Shown here: positions 2,513-61,373 of the stretch, piece after piece
How the letters are laid out: every line of letters starts with the position of its first letter
How positions within the stretch are numbered: position 1 is the first letter of the stretch
Program-made: the position numbers and the translations under genes
The notes under the pieces: model-generated
Databases searched by the model: none
Seen by the model: the letters and a program-made list of their open reading frames with translations, nothing else
What the model was told of the DNA's origin: nothing
Virus record (IMG/VR): IMGVR_UViG_3300019757_000164
Location: 60,855-124,854 of that record
Strand: one strand, 5' to 3'
DNA from: a virus
DNA length: 64,000 nt

Positions 2513-3184
2513 ATGAAGAGAGTACCACAGAACACAGATACATACAGAACTATAAATAAAGTATACAAGAGTCTAAAAGTAAATCAGGAAATTAAAAACT
2601 ATAAAGAGTTTTGCAAGTTATTAGGTTTGAGTCCATCAAGTGGAAATAGTAGAAATGGACATATAAGAACCTTTAACTATTTCTTTGAATATGAAAGAAA
2701 AGGACATGGCTATATAATAACAAAGATATATGACAAACCAATAGAGTACAATAGATACCATAAATCAGAGTATAAAAATGAAAGATATTGTTATGGTGAT
2801 ATAAATGATTACCTCGACACAAAAGGTATATATGCACTAATAAACAAAAGTGATATATACATAGGCAAAAGCTTTGATCTATATACTAGACTCTCTAATC
2901 ACCTAGGAGAACACAGTAGTATACCTTATACTAGAGATATGCTTATTAACGGCGGAATGTGTTATGTATTATTTGATTTGGGTATTGATGATGATTATCT
3001 GTTAAAAGAATGTGAGTCAATAGTAATAAACCATTATATAGATAATACCAATTTAAATGTAGTCAATAAAAGAAAGAACGTCAATAATAAGAAACAATCA
3101 TTGAATAGATATATTACAGTATCCACAGAGGATTATGAGTTAGCTGTGAGTATACTGAAAGGTAATAATATAGAAGTACTGTAA
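2513..3184 (+). CDS. GIY-YIG nuclease with N-terminal domain shared with the next gene
   Basis: GIYALINKSDIYIGKS...R...H...E...N motifs. Confidence 0.8.
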   Translation: MKRVPQNTDTYRTINKVYKSLKVNQEIKNYKEFCKLLGLSPSSGNSRNGHIRTFNYFFEYERKGHGYIITKIYDKPIEYNRYHKSEYKNERYCYGDINDYLDTKGIYALINKSDIYIGKSFDLYTRLSNHLGEHSSIPYTRDMLINGGMCYVLFDLGIDDDYLLKECESIVINHYIDNTNLNVVNKRKNVNNKKQSLNRYITVSTEDYELAVSILKGNNIEVL

Positions 3185-3385
3185 ACTGCAAAGGAATAGA
3201 ATGCAAATTTGTATTTAAATGAAAACTTGAACAATAAAAAGGCAATAATATAAATATAGTTATATCATCTTTTATGTTCAACTTTTAGAAAGGAGTTATA
3301 TAATAATTTTTAGGTACTTTAATTTGCTTATAAGTAATATTATATATAAGCAAAAAAAGGTACGCGAAATTGAAAGGAGAATGAT

Positions 3386-4612
3386 ATGGATAATTATAAA
3401 AACTTAAAAGATACATACACGCGACTACAAGAGGGTCAAATATTCAAGAATTATAGGTCGCTGTGTGAATTCCTTAACCAGCCAGTAAAGACAGGTAGTA
3501 AGAATAAGAAGTACCAAATAGAAGAGTTTAATAGGTATTTTGAGTTTGACAAAGCTGGCAAAGGGCATTCGTTAATTATTACAACAGTATATGATGAACC
3601 ATTAGCTAAGATTAGCAAAGGAATGTATAGTAGTTTAATATCAAAACTTATAGTAGATACAATTGTTGAAGAATTGGATCAAGGTAATCATGAGTTATTG
3701 TTATCTAATAATCAACTATTTAATATGCTAAGTATGATTAATGAAAAATATATGTATTATAAGAATGAAGAAAATCACGACCAACTGATAGAGATACTAA
3801 ATGTTAAGCAACAAGATATAGATCACTTTTATTCCGTTACTAGCTTTAGGTTTCAAAGTATGGTAGAATCAGCGTTAAATCATCTTAAGAATGAATTGTT
3901 TTTATTCTATACTAAACCTATGGTTATGATTATTAATATTGGTGGAAATAGAACACAAATGCAGGTAGCCAATGAAGATGAGATACAATATATAACCAAG
4001 ATAAGAAAGAAAGTATTAGAAGAAATGGGATATAGTAATATTAATCATTTCAGAAATAACAAGAAGGATAAGTTTATATATCATAGTAAAGTGCATGAAG
4101 AATTGAATGGTAATATAGAAGAGTTAAAGAATAAGAAATCATGTAACTATAATGGTATAGAGTTTGCATATCAAGTGTATAAGATTATATTTATAGATAG
4201 TATTGAGAAGAAACAACAACAGATCAATCAATACTTAGAAGATAACTCTATAGAAGTTAGACAAGCATTGAATGACCTGATTGTATCTAATACAAATAGT
4301 CAGTATGAGAAAAGATATGATAAGAGTAAACAAGAGATAGGTATATATAACAATACTGTGTTAGCACATCTACATGATTATGAAGATTGGAAAGCATTGC
4401 ATACATACAATCAGCTTAAATTTAAAGCAGGTAACACGTACGTTAATCATGGTAGTAGATTAATAGATTACACTATTAAAACTGATATGGAAGGATACAA
4501 AGAGGAGAAAGGTGTATTAGAAGATAAGGAACACAAAGAACAAACAGAATACCAACAGGAGATTAATAAGAAGATAGATGAAACATTAGGAGTATTGGAT
4601 AAGTTATATTAG
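3386..4612 (+). CDS. phage protein with KNY..LC..L N-terminal domain (putative DNA-binding)
   Basis: 408-aa ORF with GAAAGGAGA SD; first ~75 aa align by eye with the N-terminus of 2513..3184. Confidence 0.75.
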   Translation: MDNYKNLKDTYTRLQEGQIFKNYRSLCEFLNQPVKTGSKNKKYQIEEFNRYFEFDKAGKGHSLIITTVYDEPLAKISKGMYSSLISKLIVDTIVEELDQGNHELLLSNNQLFNMLSMINEKYMYYKNEENHDQLIEILNVKQQDIDHFYSVTSFRFQSMVESALNHLKNELFLFYTKPMVMIINIGGNRTQMQVANEDEIQYITKIRKKVLEEMGYSNINHFRNNKKDKFIYHSKVHEELNGNIEELKNKKSCNYNGIEFAYQVYKIIFIDSIEKKQQQINQYLEDNSIEVRQALNDLIVSNTNSQYEKRYDKSKQEIGIYNNTVLAHLHDYEDWKALHTYNQLKFKAGNTYVNHGSRLIDYTIKTDMEGYKEEKGVLEDKEHKEQTEYQQEINKKIDETLGVLDKLY

Positions 4613-8098: not shown

Positions 8099-8569
8099 AT
8101 GAATTACAAATTGTATATGAGGTATAGATTAGTAGATTTAAGCAAAGTTAGTGTAGCATCTATCGTAAGTATATTATTACACAATAAACACCAGATAGAT
8201 CTATTTTATGAGATGCTTCCAACAAAAGAAGAGGCTATATGCTCAATGATTAGAGAGTATGTTATATCGGATCGTGAGTCAATCAAGCTAATATCTGAAT
8301 TCGAGTCAGATTTTAATATTAATAAAGGTGACACATACGATGGTAAAGAAATAAATGAGATAAAAGTAAATAAAGATGGTAAATCTGTAAATTTATATTG
8401 GGATTCGGGGCATACTGAAGTAATAAATCCAGATAGTGACGACATTGAACGAATCATTGATGAAGTTGAAAAGAATAGATATAAACCCAATTTTACTGTC
8501 GAAACACATAGACTTTTTAAAAAAGAAAAGAAATCATTGATTAAAAAGGTATTAGATAAAGTAAAGTAA
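8099..8569 (+). CDS. hypothetical protein
   Basis: AAGGAGG SD, operon spacing. Confidence 0.75.
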   Translation: MNYKLYMRYRLVDLSKVSVASIVSILLHNKHQIDLFYEMLPTKEEAICSMIREYVISDRESIKLISEFESDFNINKGDTYDGKEINEIKVNKDGKSVNLYWDSGHTEVINPDSDDIERIIDEVEKNRYKPNFTVETHRLFKKEKKSLIKKVLDKVK

Positions 8570-8581
8570 AAGGAGGATTAA

Positions 8582-9082
8582 ATGAACTTAGAAGAAATTA
8601 AATTTAGAGCAAAGGTAAAATGGAATGGTAATCACAGATTTGCTGGAGATTGGATTTACGGGAACCTTATTAAGATCCCAGTATACAAAAAATATAATAG
8701 CCAAAGACTTGTTGGTGATATTTATAATCATAAAACAATCGTAGACAAGTGGGTATGGGCTATTCAAGAGCATTGTCCAAATAATGGATTAAAGTATAGA
8801 TATGAACCTATAGAGATTGATCCAGATACTATTGGTCAATTTACCGGAAGATATAGTGAAAAAGGAAAAGAAATATATCACGGTGATATTTTGGATGGAA
8901 GTACAGTTGGTATATTTGGTAAATCCAACGGTACTAGATATCAGGTAAAATACAACAGATCATGTTTTAAATTGGTTGCACATTATAGGAACGGAAATAA
9001 ATCTAACATAAACGGAAGTGGAGATGTGTTTGATGTAATAAAGCCAACTATTGTAGGAAATATATATGAAAAAGTAGACTAG
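8582..9082 (+). CDS. YopX family protein
   Basis: EIKFRAK...WIYGNL...IDPDTIGQFTG...GKEIYHGDIL...IVGNIYE. Confidence 0.88.
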   Translation: MNLEEIKFRAKVKWNGNHRFAGDWIYGNLIKIPVYKKYNSQRLVGDIYNHKTIVDKWVWAIQEHCPNNGLKYRYEPIEIDPDTIGQFTGRYSEKGKEIYHGDILDGSTVGIFGKSNGTRYQVKYNRSCFKLVAHYRNGNKSNINGSGDVFDVIKPTIVGNIYEKVD

Positions 9083-39448: not shown

Positions 39449-40654
39449 ATGCTAATTTCAAAAACAATGAATGTGGTAATAAGCAATAGAACGATGAGTT
39501 ATTTTGATAATTTAGGGTATGAAATTCCTAAAAAAATAGGGGCACGAGGATATCCTGTATTTGTAAAAGGATCAGAAATTGAAATAGATATTAAACACGC
39601 TCTAGAAAATTCAAAAGAGCTAGTTAAAGTGCAGTGTGATTATTGTGGAAAAATTAAAGATGAAAAATATTGCAATTATGCAAACAGTGTAAAAACACTG
39701 AACAAGTATGCGTGTTCTGATTGTAAAGGATTAAAAATCAAAGAATTAAATAAAAAAACAGTATCTGAGTACATTGGGTATTTCAAAAATGAAGGATATT
39801 CATGTATAAGCAATGAGCAAGATATAGTTGATAGAAAGAAGTATAAGTTTAAATTATCATGCTCCAACAATCATATATGGGAAGTAACTTACGATTCTTT
39901 TCGAGGATGCAAGAATGGATGTCCAGAATGTGCTGGAATAATTAAAAAATGGACTTATAAAATGGCGTGTGATTATTTGATTAATAAAGGGTCAAAGATG
40001 ATTAGTGGCGAAAAAGAATTCACAGATGCTAAAAATTCAGTGATAAAATATAGATGTTCCTGTGGTAATATAGACGAGAAAAGGTTCTCTGCATTTTATG
40101 AAACACCTTCGTGTAGTAGTTGTCAAAAAAGAAATAAATATAGTCAAAAAGAGGTTGACGAATTATTTAGGTCTATGAATTGGCAATTACTTTCAATATA
40201 TAAAAATAACAACACGCCTATGGACTATATATGTGAAAGAGGTCACAAACAAAATATAACATTATCAAATCTATTAAAGGGAGTAAGGTGTAGAAAGTGC
40301 TATAATGAAGATAATTCCGGAGAGAATCACCATAATTGGAACCACAACAAGAAGAAAGAAGACAGACTTGATGATAGGAAATATCACGAATATAATGTGT
40401 GGAGAAAAGAAGTGTTTGAAAGAGACAATTATGAGTGTCAAATTTGTGGTGATAAAAAAGGTGGAAATTTAAATGCTCATCATAAAGATGGATACAATTG
40501 GTGCAAAGAAAGAAGGACTGATGTATCAAACGCAGTAACAATGTGTAATATATGCCATACTGAATTCCATTCCAAGTATGGCTACGGAGATAACACCGAA
40601 CAACAACTTATAGAATGGATACAACTCAGACAACTTAACGTGCAAAATACGTAA
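39449..40654 (+). CDS. free-standing HNH endonuclease with multiple Zn-ribbon repeats
   Basis: WRKEVFERDNYECQICG...LNAHH...NAVTMCNICHTEFH..YG. Confidence 0.88.
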   Translation: MLISKTMNVVISNRTMSYFDNLGYEIPKKIGARGYPVFVKGSEIEIDIKHALENSKELVKVQCDYCGKIKDEKYCNYANSVKTLNKYACSDCKGLKIKELNKKTVSEYIGYFKNEGYSCISNEQDIVDRKKYKFKLSCSNNHIWEVTYDSFRGCKNGCPECAGIIKKWTYKMACDYLINKGSKMISGEKEFTDAKNSVIKYRCSCGNIDEKRFSAFYETPSCSSCQKRNKYSQKEVDELFRSMNWQLLSIYKNNNTPMDYICERGHKQNITLSNLLKGVRCRKCYNEDNSGENHHNWNHNKKKEDRLDDRKYHEYNVWRKEVFERDNYECQICGDKKGGNLNAHHKDGYNWCKERRTDVSNAVTMCNICHTEFHSKYGYGDNTEQQLIEWIQLRQLNVQNT

Positions 40655-47267: not shown

Positions 47268-47269
47268 TT

Positions 47270-47790
47270 AACACTGGGAAAGACTAGGCTTAAATAATAC
47301 TTGTAGGTGGGTAATTATAGAAACCTTCTGAGGCGATAAATCGTAGGGCTTGGCATAGAGTGTACAATCTATGGGCTATAAGAGTATCTAAGTGTGTAGT
47401 GTGGTAAACTACAAATTAAATTTAAATTGGGTAGCAGTGAATGTACGATAAGTTCTGAAGCTGTGAGCGTGCTAGGCTGAAAGCCTAGATGGTGAAAACA
47501 CTACGATAGAAATATCTAGGATTGTCCATAATCTGAAATGTAAAAACTCGTTTGTATTTGACTATTCTCCGAGGAGATAGTATAAGAGAGGATATGGAAC
47601 AGTGTGCGACGGTGGTTTCAATGGTGTATCGTTCTCGGACGCAACGATGAAATAAATCCACTATGGTTGATATATACCTAAATAAAACCTACTTGGTCTA
47701 GTCAACTAAGGTTCTCGAAGAAAGATTGTGTAGTCGTGTGACAAGCGTTCACTTGTAGATTACGAACAGCCTATGATATAATAGGCTAAT
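47270..47790 (+). ncRNA. candidate large structured ncRNA (~520 nt)
   Basis: no ORF of 60 aa or more; nested long-range helices 47282-47290/47695-47703 and 47303-47308/47687-47692; many local hairpins. Confidence 0.6.
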
Positions 47791-47795
47791 TACAT

Positions 47796-47914
47796 AGCAC
47801 AGGACGTACAGAGAATGTACCCTGAAGACAATACTGGATAGTGAAGTATTGGTTCCCATTTTATGGATATGCCATAGTAACTATAATGTGAGGTTAGAAT
47901 CCTCACCCTGTGCT
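47796..47914 (+). ncRNA. tRNA-like RNA (not a canonical tRNA)
   Basis: AGCACAGG/CCTGTGCT terminal stem stacked on GTGAGG-TTAGAAT-CCTCAC T-arm-like hairpin; three further hairpins; no CCA. Confidence 0.55.
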
Positions 47915-47944
47915 TTTATTTTAAAAACAAAGAAGGTGAGTTAA

Positions 47945-49106
47945 ATTAATACCGACAGAATAAATAAATACTTAAAGAAACATGGATTAGCGCCAATCGA
48001 TAGAATGGATACAGATGAAAACAATATGATTTATTGCTTAAATAAAGATGGGTACAAAGTCTGTGTTCGCAAGAACTCCATAGTGCAAAATAAGGTTCCA
48101 GAGCCATTTTCAGTAAATAATATTTTTACAATAGACAACATAAGAAAATTCATAGAAAACAAAGATAGCGAAATAGAATTGTTGAGCGATAAATATATAT
48201 CTTGTTCGTCCAAGTTAGTAGTTAGAAGTAAAATTAGTCTAAAAACAAGAGAAATGTCTTGGGATAAAATAAGGGATTATAAAACATTTGGAAATATTCA
48301 CAAAAAGAATGATGATAGCAACAGATTGAATAGAGTAGGAACAGCAGGCGATGGTGTAAGCACCCCGGAAAAAATGGTGAGAGAATTGCTTAACCAGTCT
48401 AATGTATGTTTTGAGCCGGAGAAAAAGTTTGAATGGTCAAACAACAAAAGATACGATATATACATCAAAAAAACCAACACGATAATCGAGATACATGGTA
48501 TGCAACACTATAAAAAAAATAATTGGTGGAGATCATTGGACGAAGAGCAAGAAAATGATGTTAATAAAAAGAACTTAGCAATTAAAAATGGGATAACTGA
48601 CTATATAGTTGTAGATTGTAGGTATAGTAGGCTTAATTTTCTCAAGAATTCATTTGAAACTTCGTTATACGATATATTGGATTATGAAAAAATAGATTAC
48701 AGAAGTGCTTATCTCAAATCGGTTCAATCCATGGTTGATGTAGCATCTGAGATGTGGAAACTTGGAAGTACTGTTAAAGTTATGTCAGAGGAATTGAACA
48801 TTTCAACTAGAACTGTATATAGATATTTGAAAATTGCTTCCGATGCTGGCATTATTGAATATTCGCCCAAAGAGTCTATTTCTAGGTCTAACAAAGGTAG
48901 TGGAGCAAACAGGATAAAAATAAGTATGCAGTCCGCCAATGGGGAAATATTGCACTTTAAATCAATTACTGAAGCAATATCAAAAAAAATTAGATAGCAA
49001 ACACCAAATATATCGTTCTTTTAGAAGTGGAGATAGGACGTTTAATGGTAATGTCTATCACAGATACATGGGAAGCGATTACATCAAACCCATAGCAGAC
49101 AAGTAA
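47945..49106 (+). CDS. PD-(D/E)xK (Vsr-like) homing-endonuclease-like protein with HTH and NUMOD1-like tail; +1 shift in A8 run at 48982-48989
   Basis: STPEK...RYDIYI...IIEIHGMQHY...ND..K; GAAGGTGA SD before in-frame ATT 47945; first frame stops at 48997, +1 frame adds 38 aa to TAA 49104-49106. Confidence 0.7.
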
Positions 49107-49134
49107 GGTTAGAGTCCTTACCCTGTGCTTTTAT
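49103..49134 (+). repeat. second copy of the 3' end of the tRNA-like RNA
   Basis: GTAAGGTTAGAGTCCTTACCCTGTGCTTTTAT vs GTGAGGTTAGAATCCTCACCCTGTGCTTTTAT at 47888-47919, with a compensatory G-C to A-T pair change. Confidence 0.85.
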
Positions 49135-49149
49135 ATAATAGGAGGTTAT

Positions 49150-50983: not shown

Positions 50984-51433
50984 ATGGGAAAATTTAAAAG
51001 AAAGAAAGTGAATTGTACTTTACATGAGGTAGATATTTATAATCTATCTCCAAATGAGTCAAAGGAGCTTAGGGAGTATTTGAGTAAGTTAAATGCTGAA
51101 CTGGTGGAAAGACTAGGACAAGAAGCTAAGAAGTGTATTGATGACGGAATTGAGTTGACAGACGATGTTCTTAGATATGCAAAGATGGATGCATTAGCAA
51201 CACAAGTCGAGAAATTGGAATCTAAGAAGAAAGAGTGGATTCTAAAGTTTACAAGTATCGATGAAATTGATGATGAAGATATCGCGGATCCAAATGATGA
51301 ACTAAAAGAAATAATTAGAAAAATTAATGAGGTTTGTATTAAGCCTGAGGTAGAAGCATTACAACCTGTATTTGACAGTATGTATGAGCAATTCACGAAG
51401 GAATTTAATAAAAAGTATGAAGTAGGTGTGTAG
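50984..51433 (+). CDS. putative tail assembly chaperone
   Basis: acidic helical 149 aa, two genes upstream of tape measure. Confidence 0.55.
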   Translation: MGKFKRKKVNCTLHEVDIYNLSPNESKELREYLSKLNAELVERLGQEAKKCIDDGIELTDDVLRYAKMDALATQVEKLESKKKEWILKFTSIDEIDDEDIADPNDELKEIIRKINEVCIKPEVEALQPVFDSMYEQFTKEFNKKYEVGV

Positions 51434-51434
51434 T

Positions 51435-51881
51435 ATGCCTACTTTTTCTAATATAGATGAATTATCTGCATATATAAAAGATACGGTTAAGAGTATAAAT
51501 AAAGAGAAAACTTCTGTAGAGTTAAAGAAAAAATACATGAAAGCAATAGATGATACAGTTTATAGAGTTCCTACCCAGTGGCAAACGGGTAGTTTTTTAA
51601 ATTCAGTAAACACCTCATCTAGAACGACGAAATATACATCTAGTGTAAAAGTTTTTATTGATGAAAAACTTATGACTTCTAGTTATCCATCTTTGGTAGA
51701 GGGGTATCCAGAAGATAATAGGAGTTCTATAGCATGGTGGATTGAAAACCCACATGGAGGTATATTCAACGTTCCCGGAAGAGGTTATTTTAAACTATTG
51801 ATGACGGAATACTTTTCACAGTCTAAATATAAGCAATTCATGATAAAAGAGTTAAGTAAACTTGGTATAAAAGCAAGGTAG
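51435..51881 (+). CDS. tail component (HK97 gp10-like)
   Basis: VYR.....TG.F.NS...WIE...GG....PGRGYF pattern; directly before tape measure. Confidence 0.55.
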   Translation: MPTFSNIDELSAYIKDTVKSINKEKTSVELKKKYMKAIDDTVYRVPTQWQTGSFLNSVNTSSRTTKYTSSVKVFIDEKLMTSSYPSLVEGYPEDNRSSIAWWIENPHGGIFNVPGRGYFKLLMTEYFSQSKYKQFMIKELSKLGIKAR

Positions 51882-51891
51882 GTGATGATAC

Positions 51892-54800
51892 GTGCCAGAT
51901 AATAGACTTACACTCGATGTATTTATAGATACTTCGAAAATAGATAAACAGCTACAGAGTGTAGTTAAGAAATCAAAAAAAGTTAAGTTGAATGTTGAGT
52001 CAAAAGGGTTAGATAACGCAAATAGTTCGTTAAAAACAATGGCTCAACACTTAATTGAAATTCCAAAAAAGATGGTTGGATGGATGCTTGCTGGAAATAT
52101 TATTTCAGCTTTCTTTAGTCAGATTAATTCAGGAATAGACACTATATTTGCATTAGACTCAGCGATGACCAACATAAACATGACTATGGAATTAACAAAT
52201 GATCAGCAACAAGAGATGGTCGAAGGTGCATTTGATACCGCACAGGCGTACAATTCAACAGCAGAAAGTGTACTACGTGTAACTCAGATTTTCTCGAATC
52301 TTTCAGAGACGGTTGATACACTTAATTCAAAAGTAGAAACAACAATAGCATTGGCTAACATTACACAGTCGAGTGCAGGAGATATGGCAGATGCAGTCCA
52401 AGGAATGGGTTAATGAATAGCCCCTTTATATAGCGATATATAAAAGAAAATCCGTTAAATTGCGGGAAAACCTTAATAGCTTAAAAGTACTAACCTATCA
52501 TGGCGACATAGACAGGGGCTGAATTAATTACTCAGGTATAGTAAAAAGTTTTTAAGATTAGGCAATCCGCAGGCAAGTCTCTCTTTGAGAGGAAGCTTCA
52601 ACGACTATAATACGGGTATCTTATTGAGATAATGGTATAGTCTACTCCCCTAATAAATATCGGGAAACCGAGGGTATTTCAAAGGTTCCAATTTGACATA
52701 GCATCCGAGAACATAGGTCATGTAAGTGATGTAATGGTAAGCATAGCAAGGACAACTGGTGTTGACCTGAGTAAATCGATACAATCAGTATCACAAGCAG
52801 TAAGTACAGCGGGTTAACAGTAGCCCCGATTAATAGTAATATTAATATGAAAATCATGTGAACTCATAAATATGAGGTGTATATTGTACATTTAGGATTC
52901 ATAGGAAATGATGAATAGACAATATGCTAACAGGGGAAGTCTCAGCGTGTAATGGCGGTGACAATCCTGTGCCAAGTTTAGAGTAAAAACTCTTTGAAGG
53001 TGCAACGACTAAAAGAACAACAGTTCAAGAGGTTTTAGGTGAAACTCCTAATTCCGTAGCGCATGGCAACCTAACAATAGGTTGAAGATATAGTCTAGTC
53101 CCTATTAAATATCTCGAAAGAGAGGGTATAAAAAACGTCAGTAGCATCGGATTCTGGATTCTCTCTAGAGGCGTTTGCTTCAACTGTACAAACTGTTCAA
53201 GAACAATCAAGACTAGCTGGTAAATTATTGCCCAATTATATAGTGATATATAATTAGAATCCGTTAAACTGCGGGAAACCCTTTAGAGCTTAAAAATACT
53301 AACCTATTATGGCGACATAAATAGGGGCTGAATTAATCACTCAGGTATAGTAAAAAGTTTTTAAGATTAGGCGATCCGCATCGAAACCTCTCATGGAGAG
53401 GGACGTTCAACGACTATAATACGGATATCTCATAGAGATAATGGTATAGTCTATTCCCTTAATAAATATCGGGAAACCGAGGGTGTCGTATATAATATTT
53501 AAATTATACTAAAAGAGTACAATAGCTAGTGGATTAGTAACCGTACTAAGCAGGATGAGTAGAGTCACCAGAGAAGGTGGAGATTCTGTTTCAAAATTAG
53601 ATGAAATGCTAAAACAACAAGGAATCAATCTAAGAGACTCAGATGGTGAATTCCGAAATAGATTTGAAGTGTTGCAAGAAATAGCACAAGCACAAGAAAA
53701 TTGGAGTAGCACAACTAGAGAAGCAATAGCATTTGAATTAGCGGGTTAATTTTGTAGCTCGTATATATGGTAACATATATCAAGAATTCGGTGAACCTAT
53801 AAATATAGGGTGTATATCAATAGATATGCTAACAGAGGAAGTCCAAACGTAAAGACGTGGGTAATTCTGTGCCAAGCTTGGAAAGAAATTTCCTCGAAGG
53901 TGCAACGACTAGAACATACGACCTAAGTTAAACAATATGGTTATGAAGTTCGTACATTTAAGGCGAAACTCCTTATCTGGAAGTGCCGAACATCCTAATA
54001 TTAAGTTAAGGATGAAGATATAGTCTAAACCCTAATTGTAAATAAGTGGAAACACTGGGTATATTTGACAAGACAAAAGAAAGTATTAAACGTCGTATTA
54101 CGGGAGATGGATACGATTTTAGAACGAACTGATGTAGCTATGGATTCTTACGGAACAACGTTGGAAGCTAATGCTATCTTCTCAGAAAGTTTGGCTGGTA
54201 AAACGGCAGATTTTAAAAATTCTATGGAAGAACTCTTCACAACAATAGTTTCAAGCGATGCAATAAAATCACTTGTTGACACAAGTACTGATTTTGCAGA
54301 TACATTGTTAGTAATTGAGGATGACTTTGGATTATTAAATACTGCACTCGCAATCACCATTCCACTATTCATAGCCCTCAAAGGGGAAATGGTTGCAACA
54401 AAAGCAGTGGGTTTAATGAATTTTATATACAAACTTGCAATATCAATAGATGGTCTAGGTGTATCGGCGGGGTTGGCTTCTGTTGGAATAAGCACATTGT
54501 CAGTAGCAATGGGTGGCATAGCAGGTGTTATCGCCGCAGTAGTAGCGGTACAAGCAACACTGTCAAGGCAACACAAAGAGTTAATACAAGACACAAAAAC
54601 TTTCAACAGCGAGTTAGATGAAAGTATAGCCCAATGGGGAAAGTTAAATGATGAGCAAAAAGAGAATATAAAGCTAAATGCAGAGTTAACTCTACAGAAG
54701 CTTATAAATGAATACACAGAAGCAAAAGAGAAGATTGACGAAGTAAATGAAGAAGTTGAACGACTCAGAGAAATAACAAAGCCGGGTAGCGGGGTTGACT

Positions 54801-56797
54801 ATACATCTAGATTAGTTGATAATTTAGAAGATGCTATAGAAAAACAGGCTGATTATAATCTGGTAATAGAGACATATGAAAAGTCTCAAAACTTAGCTAA
54901 TGGGTCTTTGGAAAAGTATCTCGATTCTCAAGAATCTCTAAACCAAAAAGTAGAAGATGGCACAGCATTACAAGCTTATTGGGAAGAAAAATTATATGGT
55001 TCAACAAAGGTAACAGAAGATCAAACTGAGGCTAATGAAAACCTAGAAGAATCAATGTCTAGCGTTGAGGATATAATAAAAGAAATAACTGAAGACTATG
55101 AATTCATGTCTGATGCAGGAAAAGCAGAAGCTAGAGCTAGAATACAGGCTGAAATCAATAAAACAAGAGCTACAAAAGAAGAGGTCTTAAAAAGGATAAC
55201 GGCATATGAGCAAGAATTTGAAGCTTTTAAGGCTAGTATTGTTTTATCAGAGGGTTTCTTATCGCCAGAACAATTCGACACTTTTAAAACCTATCAGAAT
55301 CTAATATCTGGTGCAAGAGACGAAGTTGAAGCACTAACAATTTCTGAGAATAAATATATAAAAGGTTTGGATGATTTAAATAACACATCAGACAAGACAA
55401 CTAAAGTATTGACTGAGCAAGAAAAGAAAATCAAAGCATTAACTGAATCTCTTAATTTATTACAAGCACAAGAAGATTACACTGAAACATTAGATGAGAA
55501 GAATTCATTACGTGAGCAACAAATTGGAATACTTGAAAAATTGCAAGAAGTAGTTGGTGAAGGTACACTAGAATGGTATCAATATGGTAATCAAATTAAA
55601 TCCGTTCAATCTGAGATAGATGGTCAACTCAATCAATCAATCGACGATTCAATCACTCTACTTGAGGAATTCAATGATAAACTTGAAAAGCAAGCTGATT
55701 TACTTGAAAATAGAGTTACTGATGCATTCAATGAACAACTTGAAGCACTAGAAGATGCATACGATAAAGATGCTGAAAAACTTGAAAACTCAATTGATAA
55801 AAAAGAGGAAGAATTAGATTTACTTCAAGAGAAACGTAAAGCTGAAGAAGAAGCAATAAAACAAGCTGAAAAACAAATTGAACTTGAAAAAGCTATGCAG
55901 AAACTTCAGAATATCAGTCAAGAGAAAAATGTAAGAGTATTCCGTGAAGGAGTAGGTTTTGTATTTGAAGCCGACCCAAGAGCACTTAAAGCTCAACAAG
56001 AAGAAATTTCCAGAATTGAAGAAGAAATTCGACAAGATGGAATTGACGCTGAAAAGGACGCCGAAGAGAAGAAATTACAAAATCAGATTGACAAACTAAA
56101 GAAGCAAGAAAATGAACTCAAGAAATCTTATGATAAGCAAGTTGATAAAGTCAAAGATGCAATGAGTGAAATGTCTGATATAACTGATTTAGAATTAGCT
56201 GATCAAAATGGCTACTGGGATGAATGGTTAAATAATAATAGTTCAGTATTGTCATCATTCCAAAATGAAATTGCAAATACAATCAGCAAAATTGAAGAAT
56301 TAAACAATCAACAGATATCAGCCAAAGCTAAGATTGAAGAGAAAAAAGAATCTAAATATAAAGATACAGGTGATCCAGATACAGTATTAGTCAAAAGAAA
56401 AAGTGATGGACAGGTAGCAGAATTACCTAGAAGTACTTATGAACATTTAAAGAATGACCCAGATATAGGTCACGATTATGAACGATTGAATACTGGCGGT
56501 AGAACTCTATCAGATGGACTAGCTATGCTTCATAAAGATGAAGTAGTATCAAATCCAGCACAGGTATCTAGATTGGTTAGCGCAGTAGGATTACCTAATG
56601 GAAGTGCTATGCAGAATGCTAAAACATTACACAGTTTTGCCAATATGCCTAAATTATCAAACATGGGTAGTAATGGCGGAGAAGTAATGAATTTTTATGG
56701 AGACCTGAAGTTTCCAAATGTTAAAAGTGAAAATGACGCTCAGTCATTCATGAGCGAAATACAAAATATGAAACGCTATAACAGAACTAGATCGTAA
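51892..56797 (+). CDS. tail tape measure protein, 5 exons (51892-52410, 52686-52814, 53138-53221, 53516-53746, 54068-56797), 1230 aa when spliced
   Basis: exons of 173, 43, 28, 77 and 909 codons join in frame: QGMG|FQFD...STAG|SVAS...RLAG|STIA...ELAG|TRQK, matching TP901-like tape measure core; TM segment and long coiled coil follow. Confidence 0.92.
52411..52685 (+). mobile_element. group I intron 1 (275 nt, ORF-less, type A with P5 extension)
   Basis: P1 GGGT/GCCC with U-G at splice site; AAATTGCGGGAAA (P), AATCCGCAG (Q), ACGACTA (R), GGTATAGTCT (S); P3 ATCCGT/ACGGGT; terminal G. Confidence 0.92.
52815..53137 (+). mobile_element. group I intron 2 (323 nt, ORF-less, type B, IA-like)
   Basis: P1 GGGT/GCCC; AACAGGGGAA/AATCCTGTGC; ACGACTA; GAAGATATAGTCT; extra helices between P7 and P3; terminal G. 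Confidence 0.92.
53222..53515 (+). mobile_element. group I intron 3 (294 nt, ORF-less, close paralog of intron 1)
   Basis: P1 GGT/GCC; core nearly identical to intron 1; P10 TATT/AGTA; terminal G. Confidence 0.92.
53747..54067 (+). mobile_element. group I intron 4 (321 nt, ORF-less, relative of intron 2)
   Basis: P1 CGGGT/GCTCG; P10 TTTTGT/ACAAGA; GAAGGTGCAACGACTA; GAAGATATAGTCT; terminal G. Confidence 0.92.
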
Positions 56798-60479: not shown

Positions 60480-61373
60480 ATGTTAATAGGAGTAAACTCA
60501 TTTGTGGGAGCAAATTTGCTACAATCGGCAATACCTCCTACTGAATCGGATTTTGACTTTTTTGAAATGTGTGGGTCGTTTGATTTAGATGAATTGAATG
60601 GATTAAATACACTTCTTACTGAGACTGAAATATTCGATCTTGTAACAGAACAAGAGTTTGGAACCCTGACGATGTTCTTAGGTCATTTTGAAGATTCTTT
60701 AAATTTGGGAAACTTTCAACAAGGTGATTTACCAATAACACATTGGAATATATTACGTAGGGAAGTTGGAACAACAAGTTTTACATTGCTTGCAACATTG
60801 CCTAATACTGCTGTTACAAATTATTTAGATATAAGAGCACAATCAGGTCAAGAATATGAATATGCAGTTCAGTCAGTTAGCAATGGAATAAAAGGGCAGT
60901 TATTAATAAGTGAGGAGGTAAGTATGGATTTTTGGGGTTGGAGTTTAACATCACTAGATTATGATGCTGAAACAAGTACCGGAACACAGTACATATTTGA
61001 TGTTGAGATAAATAGTGATTCAATAAATTTAAATAGATCTAGAGCAGAGTTTGACAATTTCTCTAAATATAAGCAGATATCAAGAGGGAAACAAAGTTTT
61101 GATAGTGGTGGATTAACCACATTTCCACTTACTTGTAACAATGATAGTATAATAGAACCTAATAATGCAATATTAAATGAGTTGAAAAATTTTATTGAAA
61201 ATGGCGAAGAAAAGATATTAAAAAACGGAAGTGGTCAACAGTGGTTAGTAGATACTCATACGTTTAATTGGAAATATAGAGATCTATTGACAAATAACTT
61301 TACTGCAAATAAAAATGAACAACCTTACGATGTTAGCTTTGACTGGTTGGAAATAGGCGAGGTGATTGAGTAA
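60480..61373 (+). CDS. baseplate/tail protein with FN3-like domain
   Basis: WNILRRE.G...YLD.....GQEYEYAV; KILKNGSG..WLV; V.FDWLEIG. Confidence 0.7.
   Translation: MLIGVNSFVGANLLQSAIPPTESDFDFFEMCGSFDLDELNGLNTLLTETEIFDLVTEQEFGTLTMFLGHFEDSLNLGNFQQGDLPITHWNILRREVGTTSFTLLATLPNTAVTNYLDIRAQSGQEYEYAVQSVSNGIKGQLLISEEVSMDFWGWSLTSLDYDAETSTGTQYIFDVEINSDSINLNRSRAEFDNFSKYKQISRGKQSFDSGGLTTFPLTCNNDSIIEPNNAILNELKNFIENGEEKILKNGSGQQWLVDTHTFNWKYRDLLTNNFTANKNEQPYDVSFDWLEIGEVIE

Follow-up and report, generated by a model that had tools for sequence, protein, structure and literature searches.

The DNA examined here (the window) is a 64,000-nt stretch of a viral genome, comprising positions 60,855 to 124,854 of the IMG/VR virus record IMGVR_UViG_3300019757_000164. 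The record holds 124,854 bases, of which the window is the last 64 kb; it is assigned to the IMG/VR class provirus, with a CheckV completeness of 96%, and represents an uncultured low-G+C tailed phage of ~125 kb from microbial-mat metagenomes. At window positions 51892–56797, on the + strand, lies a gene that is identified by profile matches as a tail tape measure gene (see below). Its coding sequence is divided into five exons by four group I introns that lack an open reading frame (ORF), and it is very probable, judging from the sequence, that these introns are spliced out to give a single protein of 1230 residues.

Exon 1 (51892–52410; 173 codons) has a GTG start codon with an AGGTGA-type ribosome-binding site upstream, and its last codon is GGT (glycine). 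It is followed on the same strand by intron 1 (52411–52685; 275 nt), exon 2 (52686–52814; 129 nt, 43 codons), intron 2 (52815–53137; 323 nt), exon 3 (53138–53221; 84 nt, 28 codons), intron 3 (53222–53515; 294 nt), exon 4 (53516–53746; 231 nt, 77 codons), intron 4 (53747–54067; 321 nt), and exon 5 (54068–56797; 2730 nt, 909 codons and a stop codon, contained in ORF 54065–56797). The intron-bearing stretch (52411–54067) is 1657 nt long. When the exons (519, 129, 84, 231, and 2730 nt) are joined by script, the resulting 3693 nt encode 1230 codons and one terminal stop, without any internal stop. All introns are in phase 0, each directly after a GGT codon, and the lengths of the three internal exons are multiples of three. 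Introns 1, 2, and 4 start with TAA and intron 3 with AAA; the ORF of exon 1 (51892–52413) takes its stop codon from the first three bases of intron 1, and the exon frame continued into intron 3 reaches a stop after 11 codons. None of exons 2, 3, and 4 starts with a start codon. There is no endonuclease-sized ORF in any intron, the largest on the + strand being 38 amino acids (intron 4 included). In the ORF list for the window (25 amino acids or more), exon 2 appears only in a 27-amino acid tail ORF and exon 4 in a 64-amino acid ORF, and exon 3 is absent.

The positions of the splice sites are constrained both by the reading frame and by comparison with homologs. For introns 1–3, the combination of an exon-terminal T, a final intron G, and a continuous frame leaves the sites given in a preliminary description of this DNA, which had been made from the letters alone. 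Intron 1 has two alternative in-frame 3′ sites that follow a G, which would add four or five residues that are absent from all nine aligned homologs, and intron 3 has a single in-frame 3′ site after a G past its last stop codon. Intron 4 has four such in-frame sites, and only the one at 54067 gives a product free of insertions relative to the homologs. The intron sizes of the preliminary description are therefore borne out by frame and homolog alignment together; its internal exon lengths and 1230-residue frame agree with the joined exons, and its statements that the introns lack ORFs and that three of them begin with TAA also hold.

The four elements were compared with the Rfam 15 covariance model for the group I catalytic intron (RF00028; gathering score 50 bits) using Infernal, on both strands of the whole window. 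Four matches were found, all on the + strand and each over model positions 1–253: 52401–52664 for intron 1 (85.0 bits), 52864–53114 for intron 2 (58.4 bits), 53212–53473 for intron 3 (61.3 bits), and 53737–54048 for intron 4 (56.4 bits). Because their E-values range from 1e-11 to 3e-20 over 64 kb and both strands, chance is not an explanation for these matches. No other Rfam family matched the window at its gathering threshold, and an RF00028 search of the entire 124,854-base record returned none beyond the same four. The group I identity proposed in the preliminary description, for which an Infernal comparison had been suggested, is thereby upheld for each element by a curated model (56.4–85.0 bits vs. 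50).

The anatomy of the introns agrees with this assignment, and all four show the U-G splice site in the paired element P1, the conserved core, and the terminal G that had been claimed. The exon upstream of every intron ends in T and the intron itself in G, and the last exon T faces a guide G within P1, the helices having 6, 6, 5, and 8 pairs in introns 1–4, respectively. P1 has identical letters in introns 1 and 2 (GGGTTA with TAGCCC); in intron 3, GGTAA pairs with TTGCC, and in intron 4 the helix is the 8-pair one. Complementary P7 strands (ACGACTA and TATAGTCT) were found at the R and S positions of all four introns, where the P7 helix would form the predicted guanosine-binding site. Candidates for P10 comprise three pairs in intron 1, four in intron 3, and six in intron 4. 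In the distal P9 hairpin with its GAAA cap, pairing is maintained across double changes between the introns (alignment columns 333–344). In the Rfam alignment, introns 1 and 3 have an insertion of ~75 nt in P5, and introns 2 and 4 an insertion of 47–70 nt between P7 and P3′. Introns of subgroup IA carry P7.1/P7.2 between P7 and P3′, and the insertion of introns 2 and 4 at this place is a hint of their subgroup, to be taken as a lead only.

The tape measure identity of the gene is indicated by matches to several of its exons. Exon 1 matches the PHROG tape measure family phrog_4211 (E 6.8e-9) at profile positions 549–685, and exon 5 matches the same family at positions 844–1025, as well as phrog_1686; exon 4 matches another PHROG tape measure family, phrog_33360. 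Between its matches to exons 1 and 5, phrog_4211 has 158 profile positions, and exons 2–4 encode a comparable 148 residues. The Pfam domain PF10145 (PhageMin_Tail; cut-off 33.2 bits) was found at 62–73 bits, over residues 125–327, in four of the five intron-less homologs scanned. Taken singly, the internal exons fall below this cut-off (exon 2, 14.3 bits at positions 67–107; exon 4, 21.5 bits, E 2.4e-4, at positions 133–201), and their matches are collinear, with the 28 residues of exon 3 fitting the 25-position gap (108–132). Because PF10145 spans residues 125–327 of the homologs and the exon matches are collinear, all four introns probably lie within a single conserved domain. ORFs downstream of the gene match PHROG families of tail proteins. 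Tail length scales with the length of the tape measure protein, and genes for tail assembly chaperones usually sit directly upstream of the tape measure gene. In the window, this place is occupied by two ORFs that overlap by 8 nt (50984–51433, 149 amino acids; 51426–51881, 151 amino acids), neither of which matches a family above threshold. Standard gene callers split the tape measure gene into proteins of 173 and 910 amino acids, by which 148 residues of its sole conserved domain are lost; the 910-amino acid piece stands as a separate protein in a public protein collection.

Homologous proteins encoded without introns support the four exon junctions. With exon 5 as the query, HMMER gave 295 matches at E ≤0.001 among 1.84 billion representative proteins, many of them of 1100–1500 amino acids. 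In many full-length tape measure homologs, the part corresponding to exon 5 starts at residues 329–352, which fits the 321 residues encoded by the upstream exons. The joined product aligns by BLASTP with the intron-less homolog P0008 (1221 amino acids) in one segment (query 4–1192, subject 3–1185; E 9e-143), and single segments over all four junctions were obtained with eleven homologs, among them also P0007, P0012, P0004, P0003, P0034, P0002, P0006, P0011, and P0014. The alignment of exon 1 to intron-less homologs begins at residue 4. In a MAFFT alignment of the joined product with nine intron-less homologs, windows of 21 residues around the junctions were free of gaps in eight of nine homologs for junctions 1 and 2 and in all nine for junction 3; at junction 4, the sole gap columns reflect a four-residue insertion in one homolog, ~10 residues upstream. 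Identity within these junction windows reaches 14 of 21 residues (junction 3 vs. P0008). Of the four glycines that precede introns, three (G224, G252, and G329 of P0008) do not vary among eight intron-less homologs. The preliminary description had named a failure of intron-less homologs to align across the junctions as one ground for refuting its model, and eight of nine homologs do align there without gaps.

Among the 148 homologs with a BLASTP segment, the segment begins within the first 40 residues in 55, and the N-termini of these 55 cluster near junctions 2, 3, and 4. This clustering was considered as a sign of introns elsewhere. Of four loci encoding two such proteins, three are uninterrupted and one (L001) has an insert that gives no Rfam match, and the clustering is therefore not evidence for introns. 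At L001 (positions 2803–4021; from a 349-kb IMG/VR record), a tape measure homolog is split into ORFs of 534 and 1152 amino acids by a 1.2-kb insert. This insert contains a 299-amino acid ORF with a match to the DUF4379 treble-clef zinc finger (E 2.4e-8), and it has no Rfam match even at E 1.

The arrangement of exons and introns is also supported by sequencing runs. At least half of the sampled words of 51892–54400 are held by 16 public runs, all of them microbial-mat metagenomes. Eight of these are possibly the source of this DNA, and four runs (X13–X16) were taken from the others; their Logan contigs are fragmented and of low depth. Runs with word shares of 0.53–0.89 had been candidates for carrying intron-less alleles. 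The contigs of X13–X16 span every exon/intron junction without differences, at a contig identity of at least 99%, and there is no intron-skipping joint in the contigs of these four runs. Because contigs from four DNA runs bridge all junctions, the arrangement is not an artifact of a single assembly. Two contigs depart from it locally. One X14 contig (window 52530–53338) joins intron 3 to intron 1, most likely by a mis-join at the repeat, or else as a recombinant. A 123-nt contig of X13 (52354–52473) has 11 differences at the border of exon 1 and intron 1, of which one gives the P2 loop its intron-3 form and two sit in the P1 loop.

The four introns probably represent two old duplicate pairs, as judged by their similarity. 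Introns 1 and 3 are paralogs with 87% mean column identity; their core is identical in 219 of 250 columns (88%), whereas the P1 part has 9 of 14 identical columns (64%) and the 3′ tail 4 of 11. The paralogous introns 2 and 4 have diverged further, with 77% mean column identity, flanks included. The introns form duplicate pairs, share the GGT context, and have changed faster in P1 and the 3′ tail than in the core, which suggests spread within the gene accompanied by re-targeting of the guide: introns would have moved to look-alike sites, with the guide and 3′ tail adapted at each site and the core retained. Such spread could proceed by reverse splicing or with the aid of an endonuclease supplied in trans. 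Two ORFs of the window resemble endonuclease genes. One is a free-standing HNH-type endonuclease ORF in the structural module (39449–40654; 401 amino acids), with matches to phrog_559 (E 1.6e-27) and to Pfam HNH (18.6 bits, vs. a cut-off of 21.4). The other (48005–48997; 330 amino acids) matches the homing-endonuclease/HNH families phrog_9084 (E 3.9e-16) and phrog_559 (E 4.4e-14), and in Pfam has only weak helix-turn-helix matches. It lies, after an ORF-free stretch of ~520 nt, between small tail-region ORFs (47268–49149), and this segment looks like an endonuclease-bearing insert; no intron was matched there by Rfam at E up to 1.

We infer that the four introns are self-splicing. On this model, the late transcript would fold into four ribozymes, each of which would bind free guanosine, cut after the exon T that is paired with the guide G in P1, and then ligate the exons after its terminal G, by two transesterifications. 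The 1230-residue protein would be made only from the fully spliced late mRNA, the internal exons having no start signals of their own. A ribosome on unspliced RNA would meet a stop as the very first codon of introns 1, 2, and 4, and in intron 3 after 11 codons. In the case of the T4 td intron, translation that runs into the intron hampers splicing, and stops near the intron starts may serve to release ribosomes before they unfold the ribozyme.

Several observations weigh against this reconstruction. An intron-less allele of the gene, which would provide proof of the junctions at the DNA level, was not found in IMG/VR, in the JGI metagenomes, or in runs X13–X16. Searches for relatives of the gene were similarly unproductive: none of exon 5 was found in IMG/VR; alignment of exon 5 and its 60%-identical fragment P0009 to the JGI metagenomes gave no relative; tblastn of exons 1 and 5 against 50,697 GenBank phage records gave nothing; and the sole return of a word-index protein search was the gene's own 910-amino acid product. 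Among the 16 runs containing the locus, none is recorded as RNA. In intron 2, no P10 of three or more pairs was found, and P1 of intron 3 has just three exon pairs; because of these two features, the efficiency of introns 2 and 3 as ribozymes is in doubt. Many group I introns can do without P10. When the introns were aligned by MAFFT, their consensus fold recovered only P2 and parts of P9; since the two intron types misalign in the middle under MAFFT, this fold is no test of the core. Finally, the provirus class of the record may mean that the phage is dormant or defective, so that splicing would have lost its importance.

Exon skipping, in which the 5′ site of one intron is joined to a later 3′ site, would add to the proposed splicing rather than replace it. 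Transcripts lacking exon 2, 3, or 4 (43, 28, or 77 codons), or combinations of these, would encode shorter in-frame variants, since the introns are all in phase 0 and the exons are multiples of three. The shared P1 letters of introns 1 and 2 and the paralogy of introns 1/3 and 2/4 are in keeping with such joints, and exon skipping has been reported for tandem group I introns in Twort orf142 and in the SIOphi polymerase gene, in which an exon was missing from >47% of transcripts (PMC11878797). However, the part of the protein that would be lost by skipping is its most conserved one and contains invariant residues, so that shortened products would probably not work, and the runs that hold the locus are not on record as RNA; skipping here is possible but unlikely. 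Decidedly unlikely is a further step, by which skipping between paralogous introns would act as a switchboard that yields in-frame tape measure isoforms, the amount of full-length protein being tuned by four guanosine-dependent reactions. If it were true, tail production or tail make-up would follow the physiological state of the host.

A decaying prophage gene, in which at least one intron is dead for splicing and the tape measure gene effectively dead within a defective provirus, would account for the class assigned to the record, the lack of a detectable P10 in intron 2, and the short P1 of intron 3. It is nevertheless very unlikely: the five exons are intact and in frame, conserved residues are kept over 1230 codons, all four ribozyme cores score above the curated cut-off across the full model, and CheckV completeness is high. 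It is highly improbable that the gene is used in pieces, with five fragments translated separately and assembled without splicing, as in phage genes split by homing endonucleases. The tape measure homolog at L001, with its ORF-bearing insert and no detectable intron RNA, offers a parallel for this, but exons 2, 3, and 4 lack start codons at their beginnings, the shortest piece has 28 codons, and each insert is a complete ribozyme. That an assembler stitched repeated intron copies into the gene has a virtually negligible probability, because, although the X14 contig links intron 3 to intron 1 through 34 shared letters and so shows that such repeats may mislead an assembler, runs X13–X16 independently bridge every junction and the introns differ from each other even within pairs (87 and 77% identical). 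Splicing of one tape measure gene from five exons is retained as the most probable explanation of the locus.

To gauge how unusual four introns are, IMG/VR was scanned with a degenerate S-element motif, a crude approach that is biased to one intron type, and 80 loci of at least 110 matching stretches were considered. The relaxed S motif occurs once in 68 of these loci, twice in 10, three times in two, and four times in none, vs. four in the window. Of the 12 loci that carry the motif at least twice, 10 have at most one RF00028 match each at the Rfam gathering score. One locus, L086 (reverse strand), encodes a tape measure homolog with interruptions of ~270 and ~340 nt (~2390–2660 and ~3035–3370 of the reverse complement), the first of which has the S-element motif and the second of which falls a few codons downstream of the intron 4 site; neither is reported by Rfam at the gathering score. 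Another IMG/VR locus with group I S-element motifs, L016, also has a RAGATH-18 RNA (3512–3598, − strand; 64.3 bits vs. a cut-off of 44.9). In the Enterocloster phage CB457P1 (OP172753.1; 96.6 kb), RF00028 matches occur at 8285–8616, 2755–3053, and 47745–48006, one of them above the cut-off (93.6 bits). A further segment of this phage (57209–57293) resembles intron 2; it lies between hypothetical coding sequences (CDSs) with gaps of ~430 and ~620 nt, and none of the three RF00028 matches is there.

The closest full-length relative of intron 1 among GenBank phages is an intron of Clostridium phage phiCD211 (LN681537.2, 28891–29156; 71% identity over 96% of the length), which is annotated as a group I intron between CDSs for "Minor tail protein" and "Tail tape measure protein." Like intron 1, it follows a GGT codon and starts with TAA, and it interrupts a tape measure gene of a phage of similar size (~131 kb), at about the place of intron 3 of the window; the host proteins are barely alike (tblastn E 0.044). 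This intron is unreported by Rfam 15 at the gathering score and by an RF00028 search of the genome, which indicates that the standard model misses close relatives of these introns; it has clear R and S elements (L005, 5985–6265). Immediately upstream of this intron, the "Minor tail protein" CDS is followed by a further unannotated gap of ~285 nt. A limited literature search found no text on the phiCD211 tape measure intron.

Phage genes with several group I introns have been published. In phages of the Bastillevirinae, genes are split by two or three group I introns, for which splicing in vitro and in vivo and alternative splicing have been reported (Weglewska et al., 2025; PMC11878797). These introns average 802 nt, mostly bear ORFs, and reside in genes for DNA polymerase, terminase, thymidylate synthase, and ribonucleotide reductase; the polymerase and terminase genes have up to three, with exon skipping (PMC11878797). 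In contrast to the gene described here, tape measure genes do not figure among these cases, the term being absent from the text of that article (PMC11878797). Staphylococcus phage Twort has three introns in orf142, a tail tube gene, with exon skipping (according to PMC11878797); as in the window, several group I introns with short exons between them interrupt one tail gene, the difference being three introns in a tail tube gene vs. four in a tape measure gene.

The preliminary description had presented four introns in one essential tail gene as unusual, which is overstated; introns in tape measure genes have been published from Bacillus cereus-group prophages and from Vibrio phage ICP1. The tape measure gene of ICP1 contains three introns, the splicing of which was demonstrated by RNA sequencing (RNA-seq) and reverse transcription PCR (RT-PCR), and tape measure genes are described as often interrupted (Barth et al., 2023; PMC10448857). 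In both phages, an essential tape measure gene consists of several exons: four exons and three introns in ICP1, the middle intron usually with an HNH endonuclease gene (PMC10448857), vs. five exons and four ORF-less introns, known from sequence, in the window. In the B. cereus-group prophages, the group I introns TMP-IVS1, IVS2, and IVS3a/b occupy three sites in all, with at most two introns per gene (Tourasse and Kolsto, 2008; PMC2504315). As here, the introns are small, lack a functional endonuclease gene, and interrupt a tape measure gene of >1200 residues; related introns occur at different sites of the same gene, and the core is better kept than P1 and the periphery. TMP-IVS1 and IVS2 are 80% identical overall and 90–92% identical in the core (PMC2504315), compared with 88% in the core and 64% in the P1 part for introns 1 and 3 of the window. 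They differ in having no more than two introns per gene, vs. four within 1657 nt, and there is no close similarity between the tape measure proteins (tblastn with exons 1 and 5 gave nothing among GenBank phages).

A limited search found no phage gene with four group I introns in print, although genes with more introns may be listed in Table S4 of PMC11878797 and in the supplements of PMC10448857; four is one more than the largest number per gene found in that search. The gene does not represent a new class, because tape measure introns, multi-intron phage genes, and site-adapted intron paralogs are all in print. With two diverged duplicate pairs, it provides a natural series for the re-targeting of guides by ORF-less introns, and with four tandem ribozymes and short in-frame exons, a good substrate for studies of exon skipping in bacteria. 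Among the phage genes that could be documented, none has ORF-less group I introns in so dense an array; with no new mechanism, it is a clean and extreme case of such introns accumulating where an essential phage gene is most conserved.

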